Below are positions 7,242 to 62,951 of a stretch of DNA of 64,000 nucleotides, piece after piece. Each line of letters starts with the position of its first letter. Position 1 is the stretch's first letter. Where the stretch lies: the NCBI GenBank assembly GCA_026390935.1, contig JAPLEZ010000142.1, positions 35,196-99,195 of the forward strand, in the 5' to 3' direction. The DNA is from Bacteroidota bacterium (GTDB lineage: Bacteria > Bacteroidota > Bacteroidia > Flavobacteriales_C > GCA-002722245). Both the position numbers and the translations under genes were made by a program. The notes under the pieces were generated by a model, which had not been told where the DNA came from, did not search any database, and saw only the letters and a list, made by a program, of their open reading frames with translations.

Positions 7242-7912
7242 TTTGGGGTGGTTTTGTTTTTCTTTTTTATGTTCTTCCTGATCGTACTTACAGTATGCAC
7301 ACTGATCCCTAGTTTTTCTGCTATTTGATTGCTTTTATTTCCTTCTTTAATGAGTTTCATCACTTCATTTTCTCTGGGAGATAGCAATGTGTATTTTACT
7401 AAAGAAGTTGACACAGTTTCTTTTGCCAGCAATAAATGTTCGCCGTCAGGTTGAATTTTTTCAACTGTAAAAATTAAAGAATCAAATGGCGTTTCATCCG
7501 TTAAATCAGTTAAAAACAAAAGAGCTGTTTCTTCTTGTTGTGGCAGGTACATGTAACGGGTAAGGAAAATTTTTATGTCGTCACCATCGGCAAGGGGAAG
7601 ATTAATAGAAAACCGCAATTCTGTTTTTTCGTATTTATTTGAACTGTTCCAGGTAATTAATTCCTCTACTTTTTTGCTGTAGGGTTTGGCAACTAAATTT
7701 AAGATGAACTCATTTTCGAACATTATTTTTTGATAGATACTCTCACCAAGTATTTCTCTACAGTTCTTACTTACATGTAAATATTTATTTTGTTTAAAAT
7801 CATAAATGATGATTGCCGAAACAGAATGTGCAAAAATGGAAGACAGTAATCCTTCATCAATCTTATTTATGAAAGAAGATAAGACTGTATTCTTTGATAC
7901 AGATTCGTACAT
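7238..7912 (-). CDS. LuxR/GerE-family transcriptional regulator with N-terminal sensor (PAS-like) domain
   Basis: C-terminal LSPRENEVMKLIKEGNKSNQIAEKLGISVHTVSTIRKNI is a canonical LuxR HTH. Overlaps the downstream gene by 4 nt. Confidence 0.75.
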   Translation of the reverse strand: MYESVSKNTVLSSFINKIDEGLLSSIFAHSVSAIIIYDFKQNKYLHVSKNCREILGESIYQKIMFENEFILNLVAKPYSKKVEELITWNSSNKYEKTELRFSINLPLADGDDIKIFLTRYMYLPQQEETALLFLTDLTDETPFDSLIFTVEKIQPDGEHLLLAKETVSTSLVKYTLLSPRENEVMKLIKEGNKSNQIAEKLGISVHTVSTIRKNIKKKNKTTPN

Positions 7913-44669: not shown

Positions 44670-44699
44670 GGTTTAAATTTTTCGCAATTTATAAATTAA

Positions 44700-45686: not shown

Positions 45687-45697
45687 AATTTCTTCAA

Positions 45698-47401
45698 TTA
45701 AAAGTTCATGTTGAACATTACTAAAATTTGACTCAGCGAATAGTTGTTCGCGCTAGTTGCTTTGTCTTGATAAGAGAACAAATGATCCTGAACAGTCAAA
45801 TATGATTTTTCGCTGAAGCGGTATTTCACTCCGAAAGCGATAACTGTTTGAGCTACGTCCATGTTAGTGGTAGTGAAATTAACGATCAAATCATTGTAAG
45901 TATTTCTAACCGAAATAAATTCATTTCCTTTTGAGGTCAACATTTTATAACCTCCCAAAACACTCATCTTTTTAAATACTTCCACTTCTAAACCTAGGTC
46001 AGCTAAATTATTTACCAAACTAACTTTTTCAAGTACATCCCCGCCACGATTGGTGGATTCAAAGCTGTATCCGGCAGTTAAAATTAAGCGTTTGTTCCAG
46101 TTCAAAAATTTATGAATGTTGAAATCAACAGCTCCTTTTACAAGCATAAAGCTTCTTAATTGGCTAGATCCTACACCTGCAATTTCCGATAAATATGCAG
46201 CGTCAACATCGGCTACAATTTTTTGTAATGAATCTTTGTACTGTGCATTCAATTGAAATCCTGTTCTGTTTGGCGTTGCTTTTCCGTAAGGCTGTGCATT
46301 TCCATACATTGGATTGTATGCCATCAAACTTCTTGAAATTACTTTGTTGTAAATATTGGCATCTCTTACTAAGTCGAAAATGGTGATACCACGCGTTAAC
46401 GTGTTGTTGTATTTTTGAAAATCGGTAACAGTACCACCATAATTTACACGTTTGCTTTGTGCTGCTGAACTGTAAAATTCGGGCGCAACGTAAGAGTAGT
46501 TGGTGGTTAAAATTAAGTGTTGGTTTTTCAATTGCAATTGTAAACCTGCATCGTAAAAATATCCTTTGGAGTTGCCCGATTTAAATGCTGTGTGTGCATT
46601 TTCAGAATATCCTCCTTCACCAATTAATGACAATTGAGTATTTGCTCCATTAACAATTTTATAATTGATTTCTCCTGTTGCAACCGGATTGTAAAGAAGC
46701 ACTGTATCGCTTTTTACGTTGGCAGCTACATCAAATAAATTTACATAGTTGGCAGCAATTTTCAGTCGTGAACTTTGAGTGATGGTAATTTTTCCTCCGG
46801 CATGAAAAGCAGATGGGAAAGTAGCGTAGCTTGCTCTGTTTCTTAAAAAGAATCCATCTACTCTAATAGTGTCTATAGGAGCTTGATCAAAGGCCAAAGC
46901 AAAGTTTGTTGCTGCACCTTGCTGCCACCAAGAGTTTCCTCTGTTGCTAAGGTTTTCGTAGTTGGTGTAGTCTCTGCGCATATCACTAAAAATTAGCGCT
47001 TCATTTACAGAACCCTCTGAACTATTATTGAAAAAAGTATATGGAGTTAACTTCATGTACAAGTCACCCACCTGATAGTTGAAGATTTTGGCAACTGTTC
47101 CTTTTACCGACAATTGTCGCAAAGTTGCAGAAGCGCCTGCAGTGTAAAATCCACTGAAGTCGTTGTTGAAACGAACAATGGCTTGTATCTCCGTTTTTTT
47201 ATCGGGATTGATGTTAATGCCCAAATCCATCAACACATTCCCTTTGCTGGTGTGGTTGGCGTTGGTGGTGTCGGCATTGTTCATTGTATTTACTTTCTGC
47301 AATGCCCGAGCGTATGCACCAAATTTGATTTTGTCATCTTGTGCATTCATTAGTTGAACACTGATGAAGAACAAACAAAGTAAGATTGCTTTTTTATTCA
47401 T
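45698..47401 (-). CDS. Uncharacterised outer-membrane beta-barrel protein (about 567 aa)
   Basis: Signal peptide MNKKAILLCLFFISVQLMNAQ. C-terminal aromatic residue (...LVMFNMNF) typical of OMPs. Alternating beta-strand pattern. No TonB plug. Confidence 0.6.
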   Translation of the reverse strand: MNKKAILLCLFFISVQLMNAQDDKIKFGAYARALQKVNTMNNADTTNANHTSKGNVLMDLGININPDKKTEIQAIVRFNNDFSGFYTAGASATLRQLSVKGTVAKIFNYQVGDLYMKLTPYTFFNNSSEGSVNEALIFSDMRRDYTNYENLSNRGNSWWQQGAATNFALAFDQAPIDTIRVDGFFLRNRASYATFPSAFHAGGKITITQSSRLKIAANYVNLFDVAANVKSDTVLLYNPVATGEINYKIVNGANTQLSLIGEGGYSENAHTAFKSGNSKGYFYDAGLQLQLKNQHLILTTNYSYVAPEFYSSAAQSKRVNYGGTVTDFQKYNNTLTRGITIFDLVRDANIYNKVISRSLMAYNPMYGNAQPYGKATPNRTGFQLNAQYKDSLQKIVADVDAAYLSEIAGVGSSQLRSFMLVKGAVDFNIHKFLNWNKRLILTAGYSFESTNRGGDVLEKVSLVNNLADLGLEVEVFKKMSVLGGYKMLTSKGNEFISVRNTYNDLIVNFTTTNMDVAQTVIAFGVKYRFSEKSYLTVQDHLFSYQDKATSANNYSLSQILVMFNMNF

Positions 47402-47440
47402 GGTAGATGTATATAAGTTTTTCATTTGTTTCTGTTTTCT

Positions 47441-49399
47441 TTAGAACATTACTTTCAATTCAAGTGTGCCTTCATTTCCTGAGAATTTCTCAGTGGCGAA
47501 ATTTTTGTCTTCAAAGGAGAACCATCGTTGACGGATGTATAAGGTGGTTGAGCTCGTTAGCGAAAAATCGAAACCTACGCCAATCGCTTTTCCAACCTGA
47601 TCTCTCGCATTTCCGTTAGTTCCTAAATCAGTGCTTTGATTTCCTTTGATCATTTCTATACCTCCGTAGAGTGTAAGAATGAAATTTTTGTGCAATTGGT
47701 AGTACACGTCCATTTCATGGTATTGTGCACGAATGTATGCGCTATTATCAAATTTGGTGAAGGCCGAAAATTGTTTTTGCACCGAGCTGAATGTTCCAAG
47801 GTAGTTCACATATAAATCGCGATCCAACACATTCATTTTGTATTTCACTTGGAAATCGAAAGCGTTGTAAAATCTTTTGAATTGGGCATTTCCGTTGGCA
47901 AGTGTATCTGTAAGATTAACTTGCTCATAAGCACCACGGTAGTAAGTTCCAACTCTGTTGTTTGGACCGAACATGCCGGGAATAGGGAAGTAGCCAGGCA
48001 ATCTCGACCACAATAGACTATTCACTCTGTGACCATAGTTTAACACTTTGCCGTTGGCAATCAGTTCTTTTTCAGCTGAAATTTGTGTGCCTGTTGACAC
48101 CATGAATTTCCATACTTTAAAGTTGGTGTTTACTGCGCCACCCATTCTGTTGTTGGCTATGTCGCCAACATTGTCGAGAGAAGGACCAAAGGGCTGCAAT
48201 GAGGTCGTGCCTGTATTTCCTTGGTAACCCGTGTACACTTCTTTAATGGTTGTGTTGTTGAAATTGGCAACGTTGCTGGTGAAGCTTTTGCCAATAGTGT
48301 AATAGCGAAAATCCAAAGGAATGAACGTGTATTTTTTAGGAATGGATAAATCTAAAATCACACCTTCACTCCAGTTTTCTTTGTAAGACGGACTCACATA
48401 TCTTCCGGCACCAACTTCCCCTTTTAAGGATATGCCTTTTATTTTAAATGAGAATTCGGACGTGATAATGTTCCATTGAACATCATTTTTCGATTTAATA
48501 CTATCCGATCTATTGAAATTATTGAAAGTGTTTAAGCTTACGTAATTGTTGTCTTTCAAATTTTTCTTCAATCGGATCCCTAAATTTTGAGAAGGCTTTA
48601 CTTCATTTTCTCTGTTGATTCCACCGTTGGCTCCCGTTTTTCCGTAAAATATATCAACGTTGGTGTTGATTTTAGTGATCAAGCCTGTTGCCATAAAACC
48701 TTTGAACGCTTGTGTTCCAAACCTGTTATCTTGAGTGATCGCACCGCTATAGTAGTAGGAAGCATAACGTGTTTTTACGTTGCCTGCTGGATCCCACGGT
48801 CGTCTTTCAAAAATGCTGAAGCGATTGAATCCTACGTTGGCTCCAAAAGTAAATGGAGTTAATTTCGTCCATTCAATACCACCTGCAATTAAAAAGAAAT
48901 TACCAATCGGGGTGTTTATGTTTCCTCTCAATACAGCAGAGAAGAAAGGACTTACGGTAGGTGCCGCGCCAATACCCGGACCTTTATACACCTGAAAAGG
49001 ATTTCCTATCATCACCTCGGTACCAAAGCTTGTGGTGGCTGTGGGCTGACCACCAACATATAAAAACATGGTAGGATCAAAATAACCATCACCCACGCTC
49101 ATGCTTCGTTTAGGTCCGTCGCCGTATGCTTGATTCATATCTCGGTTGTAGAAAAAACCTCTGTAGTAACCGCCGGTTTGAATACCACTGAGGAATTCTT
49201 TGAACAAGCTTTTTTCTACCGGTGAACTAATTCCATCCGATGAATTTTCTCTTACCAGAGATTTTCTAACCAATGACCAGGGTGTGAAGGCAGCCTTCAT
49301 GGAATCTGATTCTGTTTGTTGCGCGTACGTGGCGTTAAAGCCTGCGCAGCACGCAAACAAGAGGGTTAGAATTCTTTTATTATTTTTTTTAATATGCAT
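47441..49399 (-). CDS. Uncharacterised outer-membrane beta-barrel protein (652 aa)
   Basis: Signal peptide MHIKKNNKRILTLLFACCAGFNATYAQQ. C-terminal ...TLELKVMF. Gly/aromatic-rich strands. No TonB box. Confidence 0.6.
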   Translation of the reverse strand: MHIKKNNKRILTLLFACCAGFNATYAQQTESDSMKAAFTPWSLVRKSLVRENSSDGISSPVEKSLFKEFLSGIQTGGYYRGFFYNRDMNQAYGDGPKRSMSVGDGYFDPTMFLYVGGQPTATTSFGTEVMIGNPFQVYKGPGIGAAPTVSPFFSAVLRGNINTPIGNFFLIAGGIEWTKLTPFTFGANVGFNRFSIFERRPWDPAGNVKTRYASYYYSGAITQDNRFGTQAFKGFMATGLITKINTNVDIFYGKTGANGGINRENEVKPSQNLGIRLKKNLKDNNYVSLNTFNNFNRSDSIKSKNDVQWNIITSEFSFKIKGISLKGEVGAGRYVSPSYKENWSEGVILDLSIPKKYTFIPLDFRYYTIGKSFTSNVANFNNTTIKEVYTGYQGNTGTTSLQPFGPSLDNVGDIANNRMGGAVNTNFKVWKFMVSTGTQISAEKELIANGKVLNYGHRVNSLLWSRLPGYFPIPGMFGPNNRVGTYYRGAYEQVNLTDTLANGNAQFKRFYNAFDFQVKYKMNVLDRDLYVNYLGTFSSVQKQFSAFTKFDNSAYIRAQYHEMDVYYQLHKNFILTLYGGIEMIKGNQSTDLGTNGNARDQVGKAIGVGFDFSLTSSTTLYIRQRWFSFEDKNFATEKFSGNEGTLELKVMF

Positions 49400-49424
49400 T
49401 ATTTCGTTGAGTTATAATGAGTAT

Positions 49425-50324
49425 TTATGGTTTCTTATATACACGTACGTAGTCTACAAACATATACTTTGGAAAAGTAGTGCTTTCGTCGGGCGGACCA
49501 GGCCATTGACCGCCAATGGCGAGGTTGAGAATCATGTGAAAAGTTTGGTCGAATGGCCATCTGTGTGGATCGGTATCTGTAGTTTTTTTTGTGGAGTACA
49601 GCACGCCATCTAAATACCATCTAATTTCTTTCGGTTCCCATTCCACTGAGTACACATGAAAGGCGGTAGATAAATCACCTTCAGCAACATCAGTATGTTC
49701 TCCTTTGTAAGAATTGTTTGGCCAAGGCTGTCCGAAGTGAATGGTTCCGTAGCAAGTTTTTGGTTGGTGACCGATGGATTCCATGATGTCAATTTCACCA
49801 CTTTGTGGCCAAGTGCCATAAACATAGTCGGTAGGCAACATCCATATTGCTGGCCATACCCCTTGCTGTACCGGAGTTTTGGCGCGGATGTCGAAACGAC
49901 CATAAGTCCAGCCATGCTTGTATCTTGTGTTCAATCTACCAGAAGTATAAAATTTCCCTTTGTAGTTTTGTTTGATGGCTTTAAGTACCAAGTATTTTTT
50001 ATCGATGATGTAAGAGTTGGCTTTTGAAGCGGTGTAGTATTGTAATTCATTATTTCCTCCTCCATCACCATTTACTTCGTGCGTCCATTTTGTGCTGTCA
50101 ATTTCAGTTCCTGCAAATTCATCGGACCAAACCAATTCCCATCCATCTTTTTTAATTGGCTCTTTAAAACCATTGTCGGGAGTGGAAGTGAGGTCAACGG
50201 CAATATTTTCCGAAGCTGATTCGTACAAATCGGGTTGCTCCACCATGCTCACATGGGAGCAGCTATACATTGCAAACAAAGCGATGCAGAGCGAGGAGTA
50301 AAGTCGAAAGTTTTTATTGATCAT
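49425..50324 (-). CDS. Glycoside hydrolase family 16 beta-glucanase (laminarinase-like)
   Basis: GH16 catalytic motif GEIDIME (E-x-D-x-x-E). Signal peptide. Confidence 0.85.
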   Translation of the reverse strand: MINKNFRLYSSLCIALFAMYSCSHVSMVEQPDLYESASENIAVDLTSTPDNGFKEPIKKDGWELVWSDEFAGTEIDSTKWTHEVNGDGGGNNELQYYTASKANSYIIDKKYLVLKAIKQNYKGKFYTSGRLNTRYKHGWTYGRFDIRAKTPVQQGVWPAIWMLPTDYVYGTWPQSGEIDIMESIGHQPKTCYGTIHFGQPWPNNSYKGEHTDVAEGDLSTAFHVYSVEWEPKEIRWYLDGVLYSTKKTTDTDPHRWPFDQTFHMILNLAIGGQWPGPPDESTTFPKYMFVDYVRVYKKP

Positions 50325-50334
50325 GTGTTTTAGC

Positions 50335-50922
50335 TTATTTTTTAAGTTTCTTTACGAAGCGAATCTCATCTAGATACAATGTTCCTGTTGGAAGCACCAT
50401 ATATAAGAGCGTATTTACGCGGGCAAGGTCGGCTCCTTTAATGTTGATGGAGTACTTTTTCCATTCGCTGCCGATCTCTAAAAATGTGTCATTTACTTTG
50501 TCAACTTCAGGCGCACCGCCGCCACCAACGCCTATTTCGGGCAAGATGTATGGTCCGCTTTCAGTCTCTTCTGCACGGGCATAAAACTCTAATTTATCGT
50601 AAGGGGTGAGGTCGGGTAATTTTTGATCTTCTTTTAAAGAAATATTCCATGAGCCTGTAAATTGAATGTGCAAACCTCGCCATGCTTCCGAATTATCGGT
50701 TGTGATTTTCATGCAGTTTTCCCCTTTATAAGGTTTGTCTTTGCAGTTGATGTCGATTTTCATGCTCTTCCCATCTTTCTCTCCCATGAAGCCTGTAGGT
50801 ATACCATGTTTGAAATAGTCGGAATAGATTAAGTAGGATTCCACTTCATCTTGTAAAGAAGGAGTAAATGCCAAAAGTGCAACCAAAAAAGCAAGTGAGA
50901 GTATTAGCTTATAACTTTTCAT
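50335..50922 (-). CDS. Hypothetical secreted protein, possible carbohydrate-binding module
   Basis: Signal peptide MKSYKLILSLAFLVALLAF. Beta-sandwich-like composition. Genomic context with GH16. Confidence 0.45.
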   Translation of the reverse strand: MKSYKLILSLAFLVALLAFTPSLQDEVESYLIYSDYFKHGIPTGFMGEKDGKSMKIDINCKDKPYKGENCMKITTDNSEAWRGLHIQFTGSWNISLKEDQKLPDLTPYDKLEFYARAEETESGPYILPEIGVGGGGAPEVDKVNDTFLEIGSEWKKYSINIKGADLARVNTLLYMVLPTGTLYLDEIRFVKKLKK

Positions 50923-51227: not shown

Positions 51228-52454
51228 TTACATACATCTATCAATTGCCCTTTGTATCATGTTTTTTGAATCCCTGCTCACTCCGCACTCACTTGCATAT
51301 TTTTTCCAGTTGTTCACCACCTCTTGCACCTGCTCAATAATATTTGCAGAGTTTTTTACTCTAAAATAATTTGCCAGCTCCAATAAGTGCTTTTTTGTGG
51401 GATTTGCACTTTCTCCGCCTACCATAGTGCTATGCATGCCATATCCCGAACTTGAAAAAGTTAAATCATAGGCAGGTGCCACTTTCCATTTCCCCGTAGC
51501 GTCCATTAAGAAAGAAAAGTTTTTACTGTGATCATCTCTGTTGTGGGTGAAGATATTAAATGCTGCCAATCGCAATATTTTTTCATAGGCATTTATATCC
51601 TTTTCCAGTCGGAAAGCACAATCCATCAGATTTCCATAATCCAATGAACTTGATCTAAAATTATCGTGCATTATTCCTGCTGCCGAATGCATATGTAGGC
51701 GCGTATTTCCGTTTCTGTCAAAGCGTTTGGTGCCAAAATATACTTTTTGTGATTTGCCTTTAAAGAGTTTGCACTCGCTCATTTCAATGCCTGCATCGGA
51801 AGCCATTCGATAATAAGCATATTCTATGTTTGCAACGTCAGTTAGATCTAAGGAAGATGGAAATTTGATCAGCCAGTGCTGATAATCTTTGGGCAACATT
51901 TTTTCATCTGCAATTAAATGCTGTGTAACAGGATTGTATCCCACTACAATTTTTGGTCGGGCTCCACCTGAAGAGCCACCAAGAATAACTAGCTCATCTA
52001 AAACATCAATCGCAGTGCCCGAAATAATTTGTTGGCTAGCCTTAGCAATTTCATCCAATTCAAGCTTGAAATTGTTGTCGATTTCTTCCCCTTTAGCTGG
52101 TTGGTAAATCAAGGCCCCCATGCCGTTAGCGCCCACATAAGCCAGACGGTCGAGTGCGCCAACATCATCAAGCGCTATGCCTTTGGCACTTAAAGATCTA
52201 TCGAGCAACAATCTTCCCCAGCCATCAGGCAATGAATCTGCAAACACACCAAATAATCCATCGAAAGGAAGGGCGTCGGCTTTATTTATCTCCCTGTTTA
52301 ATTTTAATTTGATGGGGGATATTTCGAGCCCTGTTTTTATAAAATCACTGTAGTATTTGAAATAAATATTTTTTGCTTCCGCCACCAATTCACCCACTTC
52401 AATTTCTTCTTTATTGAACTGAATCGAAACAATTATTTTCTTGATACGCCCCAT
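51228..52454 (-). CDS. hipA: HipA-family serine/threonine kinase toxin
   Basis: HipA N-terminal coupling domain and a C-terminal kinase core with HSKNFSFLMD (HxKNxS catalytic loop). Start overlaps the hipB stop (TAATG). Confidence 0.8.
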   Translation of the reverse strand: MGRIKKIIVSIQFNKEEIEVGELVAEAKNIYFKYYSDFIKTGLEISPIKLKLNREINKADALPFDGLFGVFADSLPDGWGRLLLDRSLSAKGIALDDVGALDRLAYVGANGMGALIYQPAKGEEIDNNFKLELDEIAKASQQIISGTAIDVLDELVILGGSSGGARPKIVVGYNPVTQHLIADEKMLPKDYQHWLIKFPSSLDLTDVANIEYAYYRMASDAGIEMSECKLFKGKSQKVYFGTKRFDRNGNTRLHMHSAAGIMHDNFRSSSLDYGNLMDCAFRLEKDINAYEKILRLAAFNIFTHNRDDHSKNFSFLMDATGKWKVAPAYDLTFSSSGYGMHSTMVGGESANPTKKHLLELANYFRVKNSANIIEQVQEVVNNWKKYASECGVSRDSKNMIQRAIDRCM

Positions 52455-52783
52455 TATTTTCTAGTTTTATCTCCAAATAATTTTTCTATCGCCTTAAGAT
52501 TTTCTGTTGATTTTAATATTAATTCAAAGTCGTTTATCCGGTTTAAGACGTGTGCTAATTTTAATAGTGATTCCAACGAAATCTGCCCGCTTAACTCAAA
52601 GCGTTTAATGCTTCCCAGCGAAACGCCTGATCGTTTGGCCAGTTCCATTTGTGTAAAACCCATTTGCTTTCTTAAAACTTTATGTTTTTGAGCAAGTTCT
52701 TCTAAAAAATCATGAGGATATTTCTCTATTCCAAATTTTGCCATGATGGATAATATATTATCTAAATGTAGATGTTTGTTCAC
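52454..52783 (-). CDS. hipB: XRE-family HTH antitoxin (HipB-like)
   Basis: HTH MGFTQMELAKRSGVSLGSIKRFE. Lies immediately upstream of hipA and is translationally coupled to it. Confidence 0.75.
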   Translation of the reverse strand: MNKHLHLDNILSIMAKFGIEKYPHDFLEELAQKHKVLRKQMGFTQMELAKRSGVSLGSIKRFELSGQISLESLLKLAHVLNRINDFELILKSTENLKAIEKLFGDKTRK

Positions 52784-52787
52784 TAAA

Positions 52788-52805
52788 TAGCTAATATATT
52801 AGCTA
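52788..52805. promoter_or_regulatory. Perfect 18-bp palindrome TAGCTAATATATTAGCTA 5 nt upstream of the hipB start, a candidate HipB operator
   Basis: Read directly. The half-site spacing (N8) mirrors the E. coli HipB operator architecture. Confidence 0.5.
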
Positions 52806-52970
52806 AAATGATTCGAGTCTAGCCTGAATTTAGAATGCTTTCAGCGTATTAGGTAACCTTATTTTAAGTCCCTGTTTTACCACTTACTTGGACCATATGC
52901 ACCACCTAAATCCCAACTTAATCTTAACGCACATTATATCATAACGCCTTCACCTACAAAAGGAATTAGA

Positions 52971-53615
52971 TTAATTCAATTTTATTTTTGACCTTTTTTG
53001 TTTACCAAAATCCTCTATGTATTTTGCTCTATCAAACTCTTTAATATATTCAATATTCCAATTTATAAAGGATTCTTTTGAAAGCTTTTTACTATATTCT
53101 TCATTCAAAAGAATAGCAGATTCCTTCCCTTTTAATAAGGCTGTTGTAATTATTTTAGTATACATAGCACTTTCATTGGATGGATTCTGATTAAGCAAAA
53201 AATCTGCTACTTCATTTGCTTTTTTAAAGTAATAATTTGCAGTATCATTCTTTCGCAATTTTGCATAAAACACTCCCTTATCAAGTAATAACACATCATT
53301 TTCTGGATTTACAGATATCATATGATTTATTAGTGTAATCGCCTTGGTCCAATCTTCTTTTTGAATTAATGCATTTAACTTATTATGATAAGGCAATGCA
53401 TAATTGGGATCACATTGAATGGCTTTATCTAAGAGGTAAATAGCTGAATCTAGATAAAAGGTAGAATCCTCTTCCATATATTTTTGTAGGAACCGAGTTC
53501 CTTCATTGTTATATAAGATGCATTCTTTATCTGTATTGCTTTTACAAGAAATGGATAATCCATAACAAACAATACTGAGTAAAATCCATTTGAAAATATT
53601 ACTGTTTTCTTTCAT
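52971..53615 (-). CDS. Tetratricopeptide-repeat protein (secreted/lipoprotein)
   Basis: Signal peptide plus Cys (LSISCKSN). TPR-like helical repeats (YALPYHNKLNALIQKEDWTKAITLINHMISVNPEN...). Confidence 0.6.
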   Translation of the reverse strand: MKENSNIFKWILLSIVCYGLSISCKSNTDKECILYNNEGTRFLQKYMEEDSTFYLDSAIYLLDKAIQCDPNYALPYHNKLNALIQKEDWTKAITLINHMISVNPENDVLLLDKGVFYAKLRKNDTANYYFKKANEVADFLLNQNPSNESAMYTKIITTALLKGKESAILLNEEYSKKLSKESFINWNIEYIKEFDRAKYIEDFGKQKRSKIKLN

Positions 53616-55379: not shown

Positions 55380-57233
55380 TTATTTTTCTTCCTCTGAATT
55401 TAGCACCAGCTGACTCCAGCCATCTTGATCTTTGTCCTTGGATTTCTTTCTTGTTGCCAGTACCTCCTGAATCTTTTTATTAAACGTCCAGCAAGTGCTT
55501 TGTCGCAGCGATAAAATAGTAGACAATTCCAATGACGTAATTTTCTCTTTGTTGGCAAACACAAGGAAGAGAAGGTAAAAGGCTTTATTTATTGGGAATT
55601 TCAATTTATGGAAAATGGTATCCACCGTTGGAGATTCATCATAACGACACTTGGTGCAGCGGCGATAAAAATCATCTTTGCCTTCACACCATTTCTGATT
55701 GCCGCATTTCTTGCAGGCGTAGCCCTTCGACCATTTCAAGTCAACCAGGTATTTAAGACAGCTTTCTTTATCGGGGAAGATTCTGCTGAATTCTTCGAAA
55801 TTCACTTCCTTCATCAACACCCTCGCTTTTGTTAATTCCTTGACGTTGGTGGTTAATGCCTTATTGTCTTCGTTCAGCAAGGCATTCATGCGGTTGATTT
55901 CTTCGTAGGCATCCTGCAACTCAAGATTTTTTTCGTCGAGGTCGCGGGTACGTTCCAATACTTTTTCCTCTAATTCTCTATTTACTTTGTCTTTTAATAG
56001 TTCATTCTCTTTCAATTGTTCAATTACTCTTTGTTGAGCAGCTTGCTGCTTGGCGCGAATCAACTTTATTCTATCTCCCAGTGCGAAAGAAAGAATAACG
56101 ATTTCAAACACAAATCCAATGTTGAAGGAATACACAAAGAAAATATTGTCGCTATGGATTAAACCACTCATTCTGAAGGCCAGAAAAATAATGGTTACAA
56201 TCATGAACGAGTAACCGATGATGAAATATCTTGCTTGGTGCAGACCTTTTTTAATGCACAGTATAGATGCAATGTAAATAAATAAAAAGGGTAGAAGATA
56301 AAATTCAAAGTGCAAAGGCATTCTCATTATTATTCCAACAAAGAAGAAGGCGATGTAAAAAAGCATCACGATATTAAGGGCTGTATTGATTTTTGGAAGT
56401 AAACTCTTAAGCTCTAAAAAGCGTTTTGCATAAATGGTGAAAGTTAAAAGCAATAACAAAGGCGCTAAATTACCAATGACCAAGTTTATAGAAGGGAAGT
56501 TCGGCCATATGTACTGAAATCCTAAACCATCTTCTACCATTGAAATCATGGCGCAACAAACTACATAGAGTACATAATACAAGTATACTTTGTCGCGTAA
56601 GGAGAAAAACATAATCAGGTTGTAAATACCCATGATGGCAAGTATTCCATAGAATAAGCCAAGCAAGTAATATTCACCTAAAGCATATCTGCTAAAAGAC
56701 GAGGTGGACCGTATTTTAAAAATGAAGGGATTGTGATTATTGGATTTACATCGCACAAAGTAGGTTTGAACGGCTGTGTCGGGAGAAATGTCAAACACAA
56801 AATTTTTGTGCTGGTATTTTCTAATGCCAAAATTGGAGGTGAAGCCGGCTTTTTCTTTGGTGAATACTTCGGGATCATTTGTAGATTGCTTGTACAACTC
56901 AAAATCGTTGATGTGTGAGTCGCTGTTTTCCAGCACATAATGCTTGTTTAAACTAGCATTTGCCTTGATGCGGAATTTGATCCAATACGCAGATTCAGGA
57001 TTAACAATGAAAGCAAAGCGCTCACTACTTTGGAATGGAGTAAATCCATTGTTGTGCTTGATGTCATTGATGTTGAGCTTGTTGGTTTTGTCCTCCAGAA
57101 TTTCAGTTGATTTCCCTTCTATCAAGTAATCATCACTGATTTTTTCATCTAACAGAATCACTTCCTGAGCCTTTAAATCGGCAGATAAAAGAAGAAGAGT
57201 GACACAAAAAATTTTGCAGATATATCGGATCAT
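55380..57233 (-). CDS. 7TMR-DISM membrane receptor (extracellular DISMED2-like domain plus 7 TM) fused to a coiled coil and a C-terminal IS1595/ISXO2-type transposase Zn-ribbon/HTH DNA-binding module. Lacks a DDE domain
   Basis: Signal peptide. About 200 aa extracellular beta-rich domain. Seven hydrophobic helices (YYLLGLFYGILAIMGIYNLIMFF ... FVFEIVILSFALG). Coiled coil (KQQAAQQRVIEQLKENELLKDKVNRELEEKVLERTRDLDEKNLELQ). C-terminal CLKYLVDLKWSKGYACKKCGNQKWCEG...YRRCTKCRYDESPTVDTIFHKLKFPINKAFYLLFLV...SLELSTILSLRQSTCWTFNKKIQE parallels the N-terminal Zn-ribbon plus HTH of IS1595-family transposases. Confidence 0.7.
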   Translation of the reverse strand: MIRYICKIFCVTLLLLSADLKAQEVILLDEKISDDYLIEGKSTEILEDKTNKLNINDIKHNNGFTPFQSSERFAFIVNPESAYWIKFRIKANASLNKHYVLENSDSHINDFELYKQSTNDPEVFTKEKAGFTSNFGIRKYQHKNFVFDISPDTAVQTYFVRCKSNNHNPFIFKIRSTSSFSRYALGEYYLLGLFYGILAIMGIYNLIMFFSLRDKVYLYYVLYVVCCAMISMVEDGLGFQYIWPNFPSINLVIGNLAPLLLLLTFTIYAKRFLELKSLLPKINTALNIVMLFYIAFFFVGIIMRMPLHFEFYLLPFLFIYIASILCIKKGLHQARYFIIGYSFMIVTIIFLAFRMSGLIHSDNIFFVYSFNIGFVFEIVILSFALGDRIKLIRAKQQAAQQRVIEQLKENELLKDKVNRELEEKVLERTRDLDEKNLELQDAYEEINRMNALLNEDNKALTTNVKELTKARVLMKEVNFEEFSRIFPDKESCLKYLVDLKWSKGYACKKCGNQKWCEGKDDFYRRCTKCRYDESPTVDTIFHKLKFPINKAFYLLFLVFANKEKITSLELSTILSLRQSTCWTFNKKIQEVLATRKKSKDKDQDGWSQLVLNSEEEK

Positions 57234-57304: not shown

Positions 57305-60300
57305 TTATCTGATCAAAGTGATCCGGCCAATTAAAGATTTTTCTGAAGTTTTTTCATTTTTACTTGCCACCGAAAAGGTGATTTTGTAAACGTAAACATC
57401 AATTTGTGAATCGTGTCCGTATTTCCCTTTTCCATTCCAGCCTGTATTGATATCTGTGGAAGTAAAAATGTTTTCTCCCCACCTGTTGAAGATGTCCATT
57501 TTGAAATCCAGGATATTGTAAGCTGATGGTGTAAAGACATCGTTTTTATTATCGCCGTTAGGAGTGAAGGAATTAGGCACAAAAAAACTGTACGGACAAT
57601 TGCCATCAAAAACTATGGTATCACTTATTTCCTTGCAATCACCGCTGCTCATTCGCACAATATATTGTCCTGGTTGCTTTGCTAAATATTGCGCCTTGGT
57701 GCTGTTGTCCTGCCAAATGTAAGTGTTGACGGTACTTGTGTCGCCGGCATTTAAAAGAACATTATCACCATCACATAAAGTGGAATCTTCTCCTAAATTA
57801 ATTTGTGGCAACGCTTTTACTTTGATAATGACGCTTTGTGTATCGCTAGGGCAGCTGCCGTTTGAGGTAGTCCAAAGTAATGTTGTACTGCTTCCATTAG
57901 TTAATTCTGTGAGCTGAGTGCTAGGAGAATTTACATCCATAATATTTGCACTTCCTGAAATTAGCTTCCAGGAGCCGCTTCCGATAACAGGAACCGTTGC
58001 TGATAAAGTGGTTGTTGTACTGCAAATGCTTTGATCATTTCCTGCAAGGGCCGGGCTTGGCAGACTTTCAATCACGATGTCTACACTATCCGACGAAGAG
58101 CAAACTCCGTTGGAGATCGTCCAAAGCAATGTTGTTTTTCCGGCAGTCAAACCGCTGATTGACGATGCTGCATCATTAGCATTTGCAATTGTTGCCGATC
58201 CACTGCTTACCGTCCATGTTCCGGTTTCCGAAAGCTGAGCGCTATTTCCAGCTAGAATTGCAGTGCTCATATTACACAACACCTGATCATTTCCTGCGTC
58301 GGAAAGGCTTGGTGCTAAAAGACTTTGAACATTTATTGAGGTGGATGAACTCGGACAGGAACCGTTCACTATCGTCCACACAAAAGTGTTAGTCCCTGCG
58401 GTTAAACCATTTACAGTAGCGTTTGGAGCAGTAATATTGGAAAAAGTTCCGCTGCCAGATGATACTGTCCAGATGCCTGTTCCAACACTTGCGATATTTC
58501 CCGAGAGTTGAATATCCGTGCCACAAATCACAGTGTCATTTCCTGCGATAGATGGAGTTGGCAGGGCATTGAATACAACTGGAGTTCCTTTTGAAACGGA
58601 GAGGCATGGATCGCTCAAGTCGATTCCTCCTCCGCCATTGCTGTTTCCTGCTACAGCCGAAATGTAGTAGGTGGTGCCGTACACCATAGGATTAACAAAG
58701 GAAAATGAAGGAGTAGTATTTGTTCCGAAAACAGTGCCCAGTAGGGTGCCGTTGTTACTGTGCAAATAGTACATCAAGGCATCGTCGGCATCTAAATTGG
58801 CGCCTGTGGCAGCAGCTGCAATTGCGTTTGCATTTTCGCAAACATTCATTGCTGTTAACGCCATACTTCCCGCTGAGGTAGCGCAATTGCAATTTTTTGA
58901 TCCGGCAACAATATTGGGCGTGCAATTGTTTTTGTCTTTAACAATGAAGGAATAAGCGCTGCCACTTGGTATTGGAGCACTTGTAAATGTATTGCCTAAT
59001 AATACTCCTGGTCCTCCTGGTCCAACTCCGTTTACCAACACTTCATAGGAAAGAGAATCTCCACCGCTTAAAGTAAAGGTCACAGTGTAATCACTAATTC
59101 CATTGCAGGTTTCAGAGAAGATAGGAGTTGCTGGAGCCTGAGCATTTTTGACGTTGACTGTGTCAGAATCCTTGCAACCGTTGGTGTCCGTTACTACAAC
59201 TGAATAGTCGTTAGCGTTGGAAACACTAATGGTTTTTGATGTCTCAGAAGTTGACCATTGGTAAGTTCCGTTTACACCGGCATCTAAAGTTATTGTTGAT
59301 GCCTGGCAAACCACAGTGTCGGTTCCAAGATTTACCACGGGCAAAGCATTAAATACAACTGGAGTTCCTTTTGCAACCGATAAACATGGGTCGTTCAAAT
59401 CAATTTCTCCAAGTCCGTTGTCAGTGCCTACTACAGAAGAAATGTAGTATGTTGTGCCATACACCATGCCACTACTGAAGTTGAAGTAGGGGCTGTTTCC
59501 AGTGGCATAAACTGTCCCTAAGTTTGTTCCGCTGCCGCTGTGTAAATAGTAAAGTAAAACATCATTGGGGTCCAGTATTTCGTTGTTGTTATGGCTTGCT
59601 GATGCGTGAGCCGTGTCGCCACATATTTTTATTAGAGTTTGCTTCATTGTTCCGGCATTGCTAATGCACGAGCAAGATTTTGAGCCAGAAATTGTGTCGA
59701 CATCACAAGAGTTTTTATCAGTCACGATGAAGGAGTAAGCGGATCCGCTGGCAATCAAGGAACTTGTAAAGGAAGTGCCGGAAAGTGTACCGGGTCCACC
59801 CGTAGCACCGCCATTTACACTTACGGAATATGGTGCTTCTCCTCCCGAAATGTCAAAAGTAAGGGTGTAAGAAGTTCCAGTGCCGTTGCATGTTTTAGTA
59901 ATGTTGGTTTCGTTGATGGTGTCTTTTAACTGAACAATGAAAGTGTCTTTTTTTACTATACAATTGCTGATGTTGTAGCTTATGTGGTAGGTTCCTGCAG
60001 CAGATGCAGTGTAGGTATTGGTGTTTGCACCTCCAATGTTTACGCCGTTTTTGTCCCATTGGTAATTGGTGGCGCAGGTAGTGTCTTTTGCTTTTAGTTT
60101 TACTGGATTGTTTGGGCAAATCACATAAATACTATCGGGAATTTTTGTTTCCGGACATTTATTAAATACATACATGGAGTCTTCATTGGGGAGTAGAAAA
60201 CAACTGCCATCGGAAAAGGTGACTTTCGTTTTTGCGAAAGCACCTGCCGGATTGTATACCACATAATTTTTGCAGCCATTTTTATTGAATACGGCATAGG

Positions 60301-62647
60301 TAGGCATATCGGCTGTGATAGTGGCGTCAACAGTTCCAAGTTTTTCTAAAGAGTATATCCATTGGTAGGTATGTGCTTTGGTTTCGCCAGTTTGGGGAAT
60401 ATAAGTGGCTTCATTGGCGGCAAAAGTGCTTTTTGCTGAGGCATTGTCAATTAAGGCTTGAAAATTCCAAATGATGTCTTTGAAATCGGTGTGAGGAGCG
60501 GCAATTTTACTATTGACGTTCAGGTTGTTGGTGGTCATTTCATTGTAGTTGTCTGCGGCTGCAGCCTGATTTAAACCCAGGTACAATGAACTTCCGTTGA
60601 TGGGTAGAAAACTAATTCCGTGATTGTATTCGGGGTTATAAGGGCCTGGCCACATAGCACTTCCAAACCATGTTTGGTAGCCAACTCCCCATCCCCAAAC
60701 CATTCCGGCGGTGTTGAACCAGTTGCCAGACGGATAGGTTATTTTGTCTTCGTCTTGCCAGTACTGTCTGTAGCCATCAATTTCTGTGGCATAAAGAAAG
60801 GCCCCCAAATCGCGCAAGGTTTTATTGTTTGTTTCTGTCCCCCATAAAGCAACGCCAGAGGCGAAGTTGATGGCTTCGGAGCTAGATTCCTGATTATTAC
60901 CTGCAGTAAAGTTGGAGTGACCCGAAGCCCATGAATGTCCGGCGTAAGGATCAAAATTACGCAGAAATGGAAATTGAGTATTGCTGCGATCCCAGTTGGC
61001 CACATCTTTAATCAACATTTCAACCATTGGTCCCCATTGGGTTTCCCAAGTGTTGTTGGGTTCAAACTTTGCCACAATAGCTGCTGCTTTCACAAAATAG
61101 CCATAGCCGAAATGGTGGTCGTTCAGCTGTCTGTCAGATTCAAAAGCAGAAGGCATTCCAATTAAAGATTGCCATTTTGAATCGTAGTAAAATTGGTCGT
61201 CATTAGGCGCTGCTGCTTTGTTTGTGGTGAACCAGCGTTGCAGGTAGTCTTTGGTCCATTGCCTGAAAGTATCACGAGCAACGGTATGGCCAACCATATC
61301 TGCTAGTTCAATCAAATCGCATACTTTAAGTAAAGCAACTCCAGCTCCATAAACAGCGAGGGACGCATTGTCGGCATAAAAGAAAAAGTTTTTTCCTTTT
61401 ACTAGTTCCGCCTGGACGTAGTTATACAACTTCGTTTTGTCGTAGGTGCCGTAATCGGGCATTCCCGGCAGAAAGCCGTGATTGGTATGTGAATTCACAA
61501 AAGAGCTTCCTTCATATACTTTCATTTCTCCTCGAGCTGTTGATGGGTAACTATATGCTGTTGCTGCGGCAGGGGATGAGGCATCAATGTTTTTCCACTG
61601 GTGCGGATACATAGCCATTAATGTTTTGGTTTCAGTGCTGTTTCCCTGTGGCACGGTGGTGCATGTGAAGGTATTGCGGACAACCGATTTACATTCGTCA
61701 TATTCCCAGGAAACCTTTGTGTCGGTGACAAAAGCAAATGCAAATTTCGCATAATAGGCAAGTGTTGCAGGAGAATTGTCGGGTAATACAGCAACGGAAA
61801 AATAATTTTGTCCCGCTGGCAATTGAACTTTTTGTGCGTCTCGAGGTACATTGTTGTAGGCCATATCGCCTTCCATCTGATTAAGAATGTATGATGCACT
61901 GAGTGTTGTTCCCGGAGGACAAAAGATCCCGTAATGCTTGCCTAAAAGCGTAACTCCTCGGGCTTCAATGGTGGCGTTGGAAATGCTAGCAAAGGGTACA
62001 GGAGTTCCTGCGATGTACCTTAATGTAGGATTGCTTGAGCCTGTTTTTTTAAAATATACATAGGGTGATCCATGACCAGAGGTAGCTTCAAGCACTCTAC
62101 CGGCTCCATCATCCCATTGCATTGTAACCGACCAATCACCATAGCTTTTTACCTTCGTTCCAGTTGAAGCTGGAACATCCATACCGTCCAAACCTACCCA
62201 TAAGTGATTTTCTCTCCAAACGTGATAATCTACCATGCCGCCATTTGCGTTATTGGAAAAAACAGGATTGTTTTCATAGGACACATTTAATCCGTATCGA
62301 GTAGCTTGGATAATTAATGGATGAGGATGCATGAGGAAAGAATACGGAGAAATCAACCAATCAGGATAATAAACACTATTTGGCATTTCGTAACTCCAAA
62401 TGGCCGATGACCACCAATCGTTGGTTTGTATTGGCTGCGAAAAACCGGGTACTACTTTCGGCAACGCACCAGTGCGATCAGCATTGTCAACTCTTTGATA
62501 GTGACTTGTACCAGGCGCCGGATTATTAGGTAAAATAGTTGCGCCTGTTGGCAGTGCTGTCGTATAACTTCCCGCTCCTACCGAAACCGTTTGTGCGGAT
62601 ACAGACAGTGAACTTAAGAGCAGTATAAAGAGTAATCTAAAAATCAT
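57305..62647 (-). CDS. Cell-surface GH81 endo-beta-1,3-glucanase with multiple Ig-like/Cys-rich repeat domains and a T9SS type-B (gliding-motility-associated) C-terminal domain
   Basis: GH81 signatures LNDHHFGYGYF, DPYAGHSWASGH and ESSSEAINF. Signal peptide MIFRLLFILLLSSLSVSAQ, with the start chosen at 62647. C-terminal FVPNSFTPNGDNKNDVF...GRITLIR is the type-B CTD. Internal 780-bp tandem duplication (58561..59340 and 59341..60120). Confidence 0.8.
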   Translation of the reverse strand: MIFRLLFILLLSSLSVSAQTVSVGAGSYTTALPTGATILPNNPAPGTSHYQRVDNADRTGALPKVVPGFSQPIQTNDWWSSAIWSYEMPNSVYYPDWLISPYSFLMHPHPLIIQATRYGLNVSYENNPVFSNNANGGMVDYHVWRENHLWVGLDGMDVPASTGTKVKSYGDWSVTMQWDDGAGRVLEATSGHGSPYVYFKKTGSSNPTLRYIAGTPVPFASISNATIEARGVTLLGKHYGIFCPPGTTLSASYILNQMEGDMAYNNVPRDAQKVQLPAGQNYFSVAVLPDNSPATLAYYAKFAFAFVTDTKVSWEYDECKSVVRNTFTCTTVPQGNSTETKTLMAMYPHQWKNIDASSPAAATAYSYPSTARGEMKVYEGSSFVNSHTNHGFLPGMPDYGTYDKTKLYNYVQAELVKGKNFFFYADNASLAVYGAGVALLKVCDLIELADMVGHTVARDTFRQWTKDYLQRWFTTNKAAAPNDDQFYYDSKWQSLIGMPSAFESDRQLNDHHFGYGYFVKAAAIVAKFEPNNTWETQWGPMVEMLIKDVANWDRSNTQFPFLRNFDPYAGHSWASGHSNFTAGNNQESSSEAINFASGVALWGTETNNKTLRDLGAFLYATEIDGYRQYWQDEDKITYPSGNWFNTAGMVWGWGVGYQTWFGSAMWPGPYNPEYNHGISFLPINGSSLYLGLNQAAAADNYNEMTTNNLNVNSKIAAPHTDFKDIIWNFQALIDNASAKSTFAANEATYIPQTGETKAHTYQWIYSLEKLGTVDATITADMPTYAVFNKNGCKNYVVYNPAGAFAKTKVTFSDGSCFLLPNEDSMYVFNKCPETKIPDSIYVICPNNPVKLKAKDTTCATNYQWDKNGVNIGGANTNTYTASAAGTYHISYNISNCIVKKDTFIVQLKDTINETNITKTCNGTGTSYTLTFDISGGEAPYSVSVNGGATGGPGTLSGTSFTSSLIASGSAYSFIVTDKNSCDVDTISGSKSCSCISNAGTMKQTLIKICGDTAHASASHNNNEILDPNDVLLYYLHSGSGTNLGTVYATGNSPYFNFSSGMVYGTTYYISSVVGTDNGLGEIDLNDPCLSVAKGTPVVFNALPVVNLGTDTVVCQASTITLDAGVNGTYQWSTSETSKTISVSNANDYSVVVTDTNGCKDSDTVNVKNAQAPATPIFSETCNGISDYTVTFTLSGGDSLSYEVLVNGVGPGGPGVLLGNTFTSAPIPSGSAYSFIVKDKNNCTPNIVAGSKNCNCATSAGSMALTAMNVCENANAIAAAATGANLDADDALMYYLHSNNGTLLGTVFGTNTTPSFSFVNPMVYGTTYYISAVAGNSNGGGGIDLSDPCLSVSKGTPVVFNALPTPSIAGNDTVICGTDIQLSGNIASVGTGIWTVSSGSGTFSNITAPNATVNGLTAGTNTFVWTIVNGSCPSSSTSINVQSLLAPSLSDAGNDQVLCNMSTAILAGNSAQLSETGTWTVSSGSATIANANDAASSISGLTAGKTTLLWTISNGVCSSSDSVDIVIESLPSPALAGNDQSICSTTTTLSATVPVIGSGSWKLISGSANIMDVNSPSTQLTELTNGSSTTLLWTTSNGSCPSDTQSVIIKVKALPQINLGEDSTLCDGDNVLLNAGDTSTVNTYIWQDNSTKAQYLAKQPGQYIVRMSSGDCKEISDTIVFDGNCPYSFFVPNSFTPNGDNKNDVFTPSAYNILDFKMDIFNRWGENIFTSTDINTGWNGKGKYGHDSQIDVYVYKITFSVASKNEKTSEKSLIGRITLIR

Positions 62648-62951
62648 CGTTGCAGGATTACGTTTAGAAAAAAAATTAGTTTGCATAGAAAGATCAGTAA
62701 TAAGCATAACTCCAATTTAAAGTAAATCAAAGCAGAAACAAAGTAAAACCATCAAAAGTTACAGCGTAATAAATTGATTTACAGATAGTTAAATTGATGG
62801 TAATTCACGCTTACAAGGCAAAATCGTTATTTGCTAAAAATGTGATAATGAGGCTATTGATTATTTTGGTAACAAGAAGGTTTTACACTTAGTGCGCAAT
62901 TGCAAAAGTGAAGCGTAATTTTATTTTACTAAAAAAGGAGGGAGATTTTTT

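Follow-up and report, generated by a model that had tools for sequence, protein, structure and literature searches.

Closest described systems

Endo-β-1,3-glucanase is the only activity that has been reported for GH81 enzymes (PMC9609564). Among solved structures, CtLam81A of the Clostridium thermocellum cellulosome (PDB 6FOP) is the best relative of the catalytic region of the protein described here, which is encoded in a 64,000-nt stretch of DNA (the window), and the two share identical NDHHF, HSWASGH and SSSEAIN blocks. [quoted passage not shown] Similarly, BhGH81 (BH0236) of Halalkalibacterium halodurans (PDB 5T49, 5UPI and others) has the same family, fold and catalytic Glu, but it carries a CBM56 (PMC9609564) and differs in secretion route, and no CBM was detected in the window protein with Pfam.

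At its C-terminus the window protein resembles SprB of Flavobacterium johnsoniae and PG1035 of Porphyromonas gingivalis, with which it shares the TIGR04131/CHU_C class of C-terminal domain; like SprB, it is also very large and highly repetitive. Unlike these proteins it carries an enzyme at its N-terminus; no SprB repeat was detected with Pfam, no sprF/porP-like gene is adjacent, and nothing points to a role in motility. Type A T9SS tails (PF18962) are anchored through A-LPS, and other Bacteroidota GH81 proteins, for example P0009 from a Cytophagaceae MAG (1011 aa), are T9SS cargo of this kind. Their catalytic domains are 52-56% identical to that of the window protein, but they have a PF18962 tail and, instead of its 850-aa Ig-like stalk, a short linker of roughly 150 aa. 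Finally, large type-B-CTD repeat proteins such as P0129, P0130 and P0150 contain 2-9 tandem copies of a two-domain module (B+C) that the window protein also has, and they share its Ig/PKD-like spacers and its CHU_C tail, yet have neither a GH81 nor any other recognisable catalytic domain.

The gene and its catalytic region

The gene is contained in a single ORF of 1800 codons on the minus strand (57305..62707), as are all features given with coordinates below. The ATG at 62707 opens the longest version of this ORF, and a sequence-only reading had accordingly given the product as 1800 aa. An ORF of that length is real, but translation most likely starts at Met21 (62647), giving a gene of 57305..62647 and a product of 1780 aa plus stop, because the upstream ATG is absent from two orthologous loci (L002 and L003), whose own protein starts align with Met21, and because the NCBI model (P0001; 1780 aa, 100% identical to the window protein) begins there. 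The protein is already deposited at NCBI as "MAG: glycosyl hydrolase [Bacteroidetes bacterium]". Residues 21-38 (62594..62647) form a putative Sec signal peptide (MIFRLLFILLLSSLSVSA, followed by Q), as read by eye from the translation. The N-terminus, MIFRLLFILLLSSLSVSAQ, has the positive charge, hydrophobic stretch and small residues typical of such peptides, and the orthologues have equivalent hydrophobic N-termini.

Pfam matches and alignments to PDB sequences identify residues 39-850 (60158..62593) as a predicted GH81 endo-β-1,3-glucanase region that consists of an N-terminal β-sandwich, a linker domain and an (α/α)6 barrel. Both Pfam halves score above the cutoff of 25.6 bits (PF03639, 45.5 bits, aa 90-406; PF17652, 162.7 bits, aa 451-766), and solved GH81 structures can be aligned over the full length of the region. 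The alignment to 6fop_A covers aa 79-819 at E = 1e-143, BH0236 chains match at about 1e-92 (5t49_A, 2e-92) and the fungal GH81 enzymes 4k35 and 5xbz at 2e-20. The blocks from which GH81 had been read at the N-terminus were found at aa 529 (NDHHFGYGY), 591 (HSWASG) and 607 (ESSSEAINF), and together with these matches they bear that assignment out.

The catalytic motif E607-S-S-S-E611 (60875..60889), within NNQESSSEAINF, is intact as QESSSE; in the PDB comparison its first Glu is Q in the BH0236 chains 5upi, 5upm, 5upn and 5upo and A in 6fop. The NDHHFGYGY block (aa 529-537; 61097..61123), which includes the conserved Asp530, is identical or nearly identical in 6fop and BH0236. The acidic residues E607 and E611 (of E-S-S-S-E) and D530 (of N-D-H-H), which we take to be the GH81 catalytic residues, are all present.

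A surface-tethered enzyme of this size had been considered unusual. Large multi-domain GH81 proteins are common, however, with many of 1000-2600 aa carrying accessory domains, and what does set the protein apart is its tail: GH81 with a type B tail is restricted to a small clade (8 clusters among the matches listed, plus P0138 and the fragment P0162), and a type A tail was found on 13 among the 120 GH81 matches listed. Type B CTDs on CAZymes have been described as rare (PMC10792170), and a literature search for GH81 together with T9SS found no dedicated study.

Architecture of the proposed stalk

Residues 851-1703 contain 26 Cys and form a series of Ig-like, Cys-containing modules that, judging from domain matches and models, would act as a stalk; the long stalk proposed earlier stands, at about 850 rather than about 1000 aa. 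The series begins with Ig-like domain A1 (aa 851-930; 59918..60157), which opens repeat unit 1, has weak PKD_3, PKD and Ig_7 matches and is related to domain A3 at E = 8e-7. This is followed by the first copy of the B+C module (B1+C1; aa 939-1123; 59339..59893), which scores 359.5 bits with a custom HMM and comprises two β-sandwich domains with conserved Cys, the AF2 model having been built on the sister copy. Repeat unit 2 opens with Ig-like domain A2 (aa 1124-1190; 59138..59338), which has weak K319L-like_PKD, Ig_2 and Ig_7 matches and is related to A3 (E = 9e-9) and D2 (E = 2e-7), and continues with B2+C2 (aa 1200-1383; 58559..59110), assigned by homology to copy 1 and by the AF2 model. B1 and B2 are 57% identical (E = 5e-28), as are C1 and C2 (E = 1e-46). 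Next come three tandem PKD-like domains, D1-D3 (aa 1384-1633; 57809..58558), repeating about every 83 aa (249-252 nt), with DNA repeat spacings of 252 and 249 nt, a K319L-like_PKD match of 30.5 bits on this segment alone, and pairwise identities of 38-49% (E = 1e-18 to 1e-22). Ig-like domain A3 (aa 1634-1703; 57599..57808), with a weak Ig_7 'CHU_C associated' match, stands directly before the CTD.

Each repeat unit therefore consists of one Ig-like domain and a 184-aa pair of β-sandwiches (B+C). Neither subdomain of the pair has a match in Pfam at E<=10 or in NCBIfam, and a profile search against PDB sequences gave none. The AF2 model of B2+C2 is all-β with two sandwiches and a mean pLDDT of 85.3. 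When the full module and subdomain C were searched with Foldseek, the matches were weak and generic throughout (tandem Ig/FN3/V-set, TM <= 0.52). These searches (Pfam, NCBIfam, the PDB profile search and two AF2 and Foldseek runs) revealed no CBM or other known domain in B/C, and no known CBM was found in the C-terminal region by sequence (Pfam, NCBIfam) or by fold (Foldseek). A CxG...GG...Y pattern had raised the suspicion that B is a SprB repeat, but PF13573 was absent from the B domains at E<=10 and from the whole protein in the Pfam search.

These structural results bear on a different reading, in our view an unlikely one, in which the Ig-like region is an adhesin or glycan-binding array rather than a passive stalk and GH81 serves as the warhead of an adhesin used in attack or foraging; in a further step, to be doubted to the same degree, the two-sandwich modules would dock the bacterium or its enzyme on β-glucan-rich algal, fungal or oomycete cells. 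The missing canonical CBM could be taken to favour such an array, as BH0236 and PsLam81A, both characterised GH81 enzymes from bacteria, carry CBM56 (PMC9609564), and β-sandwich laminarin-binding CBMs have recently been found in multimodular Bacteroidota proteins (bioRxiv 10.1101/2023.09.07.556657), but the weak fold matches to the module included no CBM and the model of subdomain C alone is of moderate confidence (pLDDT 71). The module also has invariant Cys and aromatic positions, although the conserved aromatics fall in predicted core strands (YYLH, YGTTYYIS). Furthermore, it dominates hundreds of large type-B-CTD proteins that look like adhesins because they are without a catalytic domain, yet these carriers are overwhelmingly unconnected with glucan.

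The module was found in at least 1560 protein clusters (E<=1e-3). Among the best 147 carriers, which have 2-9 copies each, a type-B-like CTD stands at the end of 132, and the GH81 family is represented by P0138 and the orthologue fragment P0162 only. Pfam confirmed CHU_C in six of seven proteins sampled. P0162 had been considered as an independent non-GH81 carrier whose module is nearer to copy 2 than is copy 1, but it is an N-terminally truncated GH81 orthologue that is 81% identical to P0008. As judged from these carriers, the module is a generic scaffold of type-B cargo and not particular to the GH81 enzyme. It seems quite improbable that it is instead an undescribed functional unit of such cargo, whether glycan- or cell-binding or a coupler to PorP/SprF-like anchors or the gliding track. 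If it were, the catalytic head would sit on a SprB-like adhesin chassis as a surface enzyme that is directed at prey or particles and might itself move. Being common among type-B-CTD proteins and a Pfam orphan, the 184-aa module could be defined as a domain family, which may be the more useful result.

Similarity and age of the tandem repeat

An internal 780-nt tandem duplication had been read from the sequence, and it is present: the spacing of the two units (58561..59340 and 59341..60120) is exactly 780 nt, and the units of 260 aa align at 48% amino acid identity (E = 1e-59). This likeness is far above chance and is not low complexity, so the repeat is no artefact of sequence composition. 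However, the units are not strongly similar at the DNA level along their whole length, as had also been claimed. Their ungapped DNA identity over the 780 nt is 40%, and their gapped identity is about 60% in the nucleotide alignment and 55% in the codon alignment. High similarity is limited to a 128-nt patch (58560-58687 against 59340-59467) that is 77% identical and codes for the module's conserved end (...DPCLSVxKGTPVVFNALP); the segment that had been given as an example (59341.. against 58561..) is 82% identical in its first 60 nt.

The duplication had been called recent, with the implication that it has just lengthened the stalk and that copy number varies among close relatives, and this we find barely credible. 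Between the copies, synonymous sites have reached saturation (NG86 dS about 2.6, dN 0.50). Eight orthologues, which are 47-77% identical to the window protein, were compared and both full copies are present in six of them (P0001, P0002, P0003, P0005, P0006 and P0007); the sole variation resembling a change in copy number is that unit 1 has lost its C subdomain in P0004 and P0008. In a neighbour-joining tree the copies cluster by position: first copies from different genomes fall together, and so do second copies. With both copies in six orthologues and grouping by position, the comparison indicates that the duplication is old and predates the sampled orthologue lineages.

What would speak for recency is the exact spacing and the local DNA similarity. 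In the last 132 nt of the module, copies within a genome are 75% identical in DNA, compared with 61-71% for cross-genome paralogue pairs, and third codon positions agree at 57% compared with 25-55%. The 128-nt patch, however, corresponds to the best-conserved peptide of the module, so that its similarity is largely explained by purifying selection. The module's 3' end may be locally homogenised. Gene conversion there was considered and set aside as too weak, as the excess is small, covers 44 codons and was seen in the window and L004 but not in L001 or L002. The repeat is best described as a probable old tandem duplication of a three-domain unit, an Ig-like domain plus the two-sandwich module, that would have been kept by selection. 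Without the recent duplication, which is not real, the gene loses its special feature and is a straightforward homology-based annotation.

C-terminal domain, with proposed secretion and anchoring

Residues 1704-1800 (57308..57598) match the type B T9SS sorting domain above cutoff in both models that describe it, PF13585 CHU_C (52.7 bits, cutoff 27, aa 1710-1786 of 1800) and TIGR04131 (39.2 bits, cutoff 35, aa 1710-1784), and the type B CTD proposed for the extreme C-terminus is confirmed at this level. According to the published model, type B cargo is anchored via PorP/SprF-like proteins, and SprB and PG1035 are surface-retained (PMC9143113). In C. hutchinsonii, type B substrates remain in the outer-membrane fraction, with the anchoring mechanism stated as unresolved (PMC12860637). 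By analogy with these systems, SprB-like surface attachment of the window protein is plausible. No PorP/SprF-like gene was found among the window ORFs scanned or among the genes of the orthologous loci L001-L004, which lowers the case for tethering and leaves the CTD assignment unaffected. Genes for such partners often neighbour those of their cargo, but here the partner may be encoded elsewhere.

The lack of an adjacent anchor gene, and the unresolved anchoring in C. hutchinsonii (PMC12860637), would also fit a soluble extracellular glucanase for which the type B CTD is an export signal only. We consider such release rather unlikely, given that the studied type B cargo is retained through PorP-like proteins (PMC9143113), that the C. 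hutchinsonii substrates stay with the outer membrane (PMC12860637) and that a stalk of about 850 aa would make most sense on a tethered enzyme.

The lineage appears to have a T9SS. In the orthologous locus L001, genes for PorU-like (Peptidase_C25) and PorV proteins are found some 7 kb upstream of the orthologue, and the window holds several type A and type B cargo genes plus a gldM. This gldM homologue, the only one in the window, is split by a frameshift, which may reflect either misassembly of the MAG or a true defect.

Upstream block and gene neighbourhood

A repeat search identified a conserved, putatively promoter-proximal block upstream of the gene (62736..62798) that is near-invariant upstream of the orthologues in L001, L002 and L003. 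It consists of a 20-nt tandem direct repeat (ATCAATTTAACTATCTGTAA / ATCAATTTATTACGCTGTAA) followed by CTGTAACTTTT ... TTTTACTTTGTTT, and within the window the repeat pattern is unique to the GH81 upstream region. An operator common to the promoters of GH81 and the GH16 operon was considered and rejected, as the repeat pattern and the TTTTACTTTGTTT box occur upstream of GH81 only, and no regulon link between the two was found. An Rfam scan of the window gave no RNA family. The downstream neighbour (55380..57233) encodes a 7TMR-DISM membrane sensor (PF07695, PF07696) with a coiled-coil and Zn-ribbon tail, and this adjacency is kept in L001 and L002/L003; a regulatory link between the sensor and the GH81 gene may exist.

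A co-oriented glucan-processing cluster lies nearby (42423..50922), with GH16 and GH3 assigned by Pfam/NCBIfam. It comprises genes for a 195-aa protein, a GH16 lipoprotein, two proteins of 652 and 575 aa that are probable outer-membrane barrels (C-terminal Phe and weak paralogy), a 328-aa lipoprotein and GH3. Three relatives, L001, L002 and L003, keep GH81, the 7TMR-DISM gene, type A cargo, GH16 and the two unknown proteins in this order. Within the cluster, the gene order from the 195-aa protein across GH16 to the two large unknowns is also shared with L001 and L002/L003. These loci stop short of any GH3, which in the window adjoins the cluster. The neighbourhood of the distant orthologue P0006 is unrelated, which makes the link of GH81 to the GH16/GH3 cluster specific to this clade.

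Proposed function and significance

Taken as a whole, the protein is probably a modular secreted endo-β-1,3-glucanase with a GH81 head, an Ig-like stalk and T9SS type B export and anchoring. The Sec signal peptide would carry it to the periplasm, where the type B CTD would pass it to the type IX secretion system and across the outer membrane. On the cell surface it would most likely be held by a PorP/SprF-like outer-membrane protein, by analogy with SprB/SprF and PG1035/PorP. The head, predicted to be an inverting (α/α)6 enzyme with its catalytic Glu/Glu/Asp intact, would be held off the membrane on ten Ig-like β-sandwich domains, roughly 35-40 nm if extended, and would cut laminarin, chrysolaminarin or cell-wall β-1,3-glucan into oligosaccharides. 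In this clade, the nearby GH16/GH3 cluster would probably process these products.

Laminarin is an abundant algal storage glucan. If the model holds, an uncultured Flavobacteriales clade would use the type B branch of the T9SS, the less studied one, to display a β-1,3-glucanase on a long stalk, and the pairing of GH81 with a GH16/GH3 cluster lacking SusC/SusD would offer a way of using laminarin other than the classical PUL route. Furthermore, the protein would provide a clear enzymatic example among type B cargo, a class for which the mode of anchoring has yet to be settled (PMC12860637, PMC9143113).

Architecture and catalytic domain

The protein encoded in one long frame at window positions 57305..62707 (minus strand; 1800 codons counted from the first ATG) carries an ordinary GH81 catalytic domain at its N-terminus and a type B T9SS domain at its extreme C-terminus. 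The real start is most likely Met21 (62647), since the NCBI model P0001 has 1780 aa and since two orthologous loci, L002 and L003, lack the upstream ATG and have protein starts that align with Met21. P0001 is identical in protein sequence and is already in the database, under the generic name 'MAG: glycosyl hydrolase [Bacteroidetes bacterium]'. By inspection, the sequence that begins at Met21, MIFRLLFILLLSSLSVSAQ, looks like a Sec signal peptide.

The GH81 assignment made in the sequence-only reading is clearly borne out, as both Pfam halves score above cutoff (PF03639, 45.5 bits; PF17652, 162.7 bits) and the motifs it listed occur at aa 529 (NDHHFGYGY), aa 591 (HSWASG) and aa 607 (ESSSEAINF). 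An end-to-end alignment of residues 79-819 is obtained with the solved GH81 of Clostridium thermocellum (6fop_A, E 1e-143), and another with Bacillus halodurans BH0236 (E about 1e-92). The Asp of NDHHF is intact, as is the first Glu of the motif NNQ-E607-SSS-E611-AINF; the position of E607 is Q in BH0236 chains 5upi/5upm/5upn/5upo and A in 6fop. [quoted passage not shown]

The C-terminal 950 aa can be parsed into an Ig-like domain A1 (851-930), a two-sandwich module B1 + C1 (939-1123), a second Ig-like domain A2 (1124-1190) and module copy B2 + C2 (1200-1383), three PKD-like domains D1-D3 that are 38-49% identical (1384-1633), a third Ig-like domain A3 (1634-1703) and the C-terminal domain (CTD; 1704-1800). 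At the CTD, CHU_C gives 52.7 bits (cutoff 27) and TIGR04131 39.2 bits (cutoff 35), so the type B call was correct. GH81 proteins exported by the T9SS with a type A tail are common in the database, accounting for 13 of the 120 GH81 matches listed. A long stalk combined with a type B tail is found in a small clade only, comprising eight clusters among the matches listed plus P0138 and the N-terminally truncated fragment P0162. CAZymes that carry type B CTDs are reported to be rare, though known (PMC10792170).

Age of the internal repeat

The 780-nt period is real, with DNA repeat family D1 pairing 58560-58687 with 59340-59467 at 77% identity, and the two 260-aa units (each A+B+C) are 48% identical in protein alignment (E 1e-59). 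The earlier view that the duplication is recent has to be abandoned: DNA identity between units is 40% ungapped over the full 780 nt, about 60% gapped and 55% codon-aligned, and NG86 gives dN 0.50 and a saturated dS of 2.6. Furthermore, both complete copies occur in six orthologues (P0001, P0002, P0003, P0005, P0006 and P0007) whose identity to the window protein is 47-100%. In a neighbour-joining tree all copy-1 modules cluster together and copy-2 modules do likewise, and therefore the duplication is older than the split of these lineages. The high-identity patch that had suggested recency codes for the module's most conserved peptide, YGTTYYIS...DPCLSVxKGTPVVFNALP.

Stalk length does vary between relatives, through domain loss and not recent duplication. 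The sole structural variation among the orthologues compared is the precise loss of the C subdomain of unit 1 (about 110 aa; equivalent to window 59339..59674) in P0004 and P0008, with B1 kept. Over the module's last 132 nt, copies within a genome (the window and L004, the locus of a relative) share 75-77% DNA identity, with 57% at third codon positions, compared with 61-72% and 25-59% for cross-genome paralogue pairs that include these copies. This within-genome excess is faint and is absent from L001 and L002; local gene conversion at the 3' patch is possible but unproven.

Genomic neighbourhood

The GH81 gene is followed downstream, on its own strand, by a 7TMR-DISM sensor, a small type A cargo gene, a TPR gene, hipBA and then a glucan cluster. 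The 7TMR-DISM protein (55380..57233, minus) consists of 7TMR-DISMED2, seven TM helices and a 230-aa cytoplasmic tail in which a Cys-rich Zn-ribbon comes after a coiled coil; it has no recognised output domain, and the ribbon resembles the IS1595 transposase N-terminus below cutoff (E 4e-5). The protein may be a one-component system that both senses at the membrane and, as a regulator, binds DNA. Its gene also adjoins the GH81 gene in L001, L002 and L003. The glucan cluster (44700..50922, minus) encodes a 195-aa protein, a GH16 lipoprotein, 652-aa and 575-aa proteins and a 328-aa lipoprotein, followed by GH3. The 652-aa and 575-aa proteins match no family, both end in Phe and show weak paralogy (E 6e-4); they are probable outer-membrane beta-barrels and could be oligosaccharide uptake channels. 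No SusC/SusD pair lies within the window.

The order GH81, 7TMR-DISM, type A cargo, 19x-aa protein, GH16, 652-aa and 575/602-aa proteins is kept in L001 (77% orthologue) and L002/L003 (73%), whereas the neighbourhood of P0006, a 50% orthologue, does not share it. The close relatives are all Flavobacteriales MAGs. The hipA/hipB toxin-antitoxin pair and TPR gene (51228..53615, minus), between the type A cargo gene and the GH16 cluster, are present only in the window genome and absent from all three syntenic loci, and are therefore a lineage-specific insertion.

The gene immediately upstream of GH81 encodes a further type B CTD protein, also with Ig-like domains (62991 to beyond 64000, minus; cut by the window end); the L001 orthologue of this protein has 1201 aa, and a hairpin terminator follows the gene. 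The GH81 gene has its own 283-nt upstream region, in which 62736..62798 holds a tandem 20-nt direct repeat (ATCAA-N9-CTGTAA, twice) and an adjoining near-invariant block, CTGTAACTTTT ... TTTTACTTTGTTT. The repeat pattern occurs nowhere else within the window, and the block is almost invariant in three orthologous loci (four loci in all) with proteins just 73-77% identical. This stretch is probably a promoter that includes a binding site for a regulator.

Four type A CTD cargo genes (8039-14458, 31551-33413, 36335-37951 and 54203-55078) and the upstream type B protein make the region rich in T9SS cargo. An open frame of >1855 aa runs off the left window end (1..5566, minus). Three tandem paralogous genes for PAS/LuxR-type (GerE) regulators (262, 262 and 224 aa), whose stop and start codons overlap, occupy 5668..7912 (minus).

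Proposed surface display

On the reading with the most support, the GH81 protein would be exported by Sec, translocated by the T9SS by way of its type B CTD and probably retained at the surface by a PorP/SprF-like protein, by analogy with the published model for type B cargo (PMC9143113). In C. hutchinsonii, retention of type B cargo in the outer membrane does not depend on LPS (PMC12860637). The head would then be presented on a stalk made of ten Ig-like domains, with an estimated length of roughly 35-40 nm at about 3.5-4 nm per domain; it would cut beta-1,3-glucan and pass oligosaccharides to the GH16/GH3 cluster. The analysis establishes the domain identities, how old the repeat is, where the module occurs and the synteny, while location in the cell, the part played by the stalk, substrate and regulation are inferences.

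Several observations count against this model. No PorP/SprF-like anchor partner gene lies within the window, and no carbohydrate-binding module was recognisable in B+C with Pfam, NCBIfam, PDB sequences or Foldseek. Moreover, the sole gldM/porM homologue in the window (17377..18974, minus), without flanking gldK/L/N, is interrupted by a frameshift of one base near 18183-18200 (...CAAAAGCCATCATTTTAATAGG...), which leaves two ORFs, of 263 aa and 254 aa; across the junction the downstream frame is open. Possible explanations are an indel from MAG assembly, a pseudogene or an orphan paralogue, and the answer bears on whether this organism has a working T9SS.

The two-sandwich module

B and C have no Pfam match even at E<=10, and no NCBIfam or PDB sequence match. 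An AlphaFold2 model of B2+C2 (12-sequence alignment, mean pLDDT 85) shows two beta-sandwiches, for which Foldseek against the PDB returns generic tandem Ig/FN3 proteins only (best E 9e-4, TM about 0.3-0.44); C alone (pLDDT 71) gives only weak matches to V-set or phage Ig-like domains. The two copies of the GH81 clade are mutual nearest relatives, 58% identical versus at most 52% to modules of other proteins. In a profile search across 1.84 billion representative proteins, the module turns up in 1560 clusters at E<=1e-3 (639 at E<=1e-30). Among the best 147 proteins, a custom HMM finds a type-B-like CTD at the end of 132, full copies number 2-9 (commonest 3), and the only GH81 family members are P0138 and the fragment P0162; Pfam confirms CHU_C in six of seven sampled module proteins. 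The module is thus a stock building block of type-B-CTD surface proteins, so far unannotated. Recognising this abundant Pfam-orphan module of type B cargo is the most useful by-product of the analysis.
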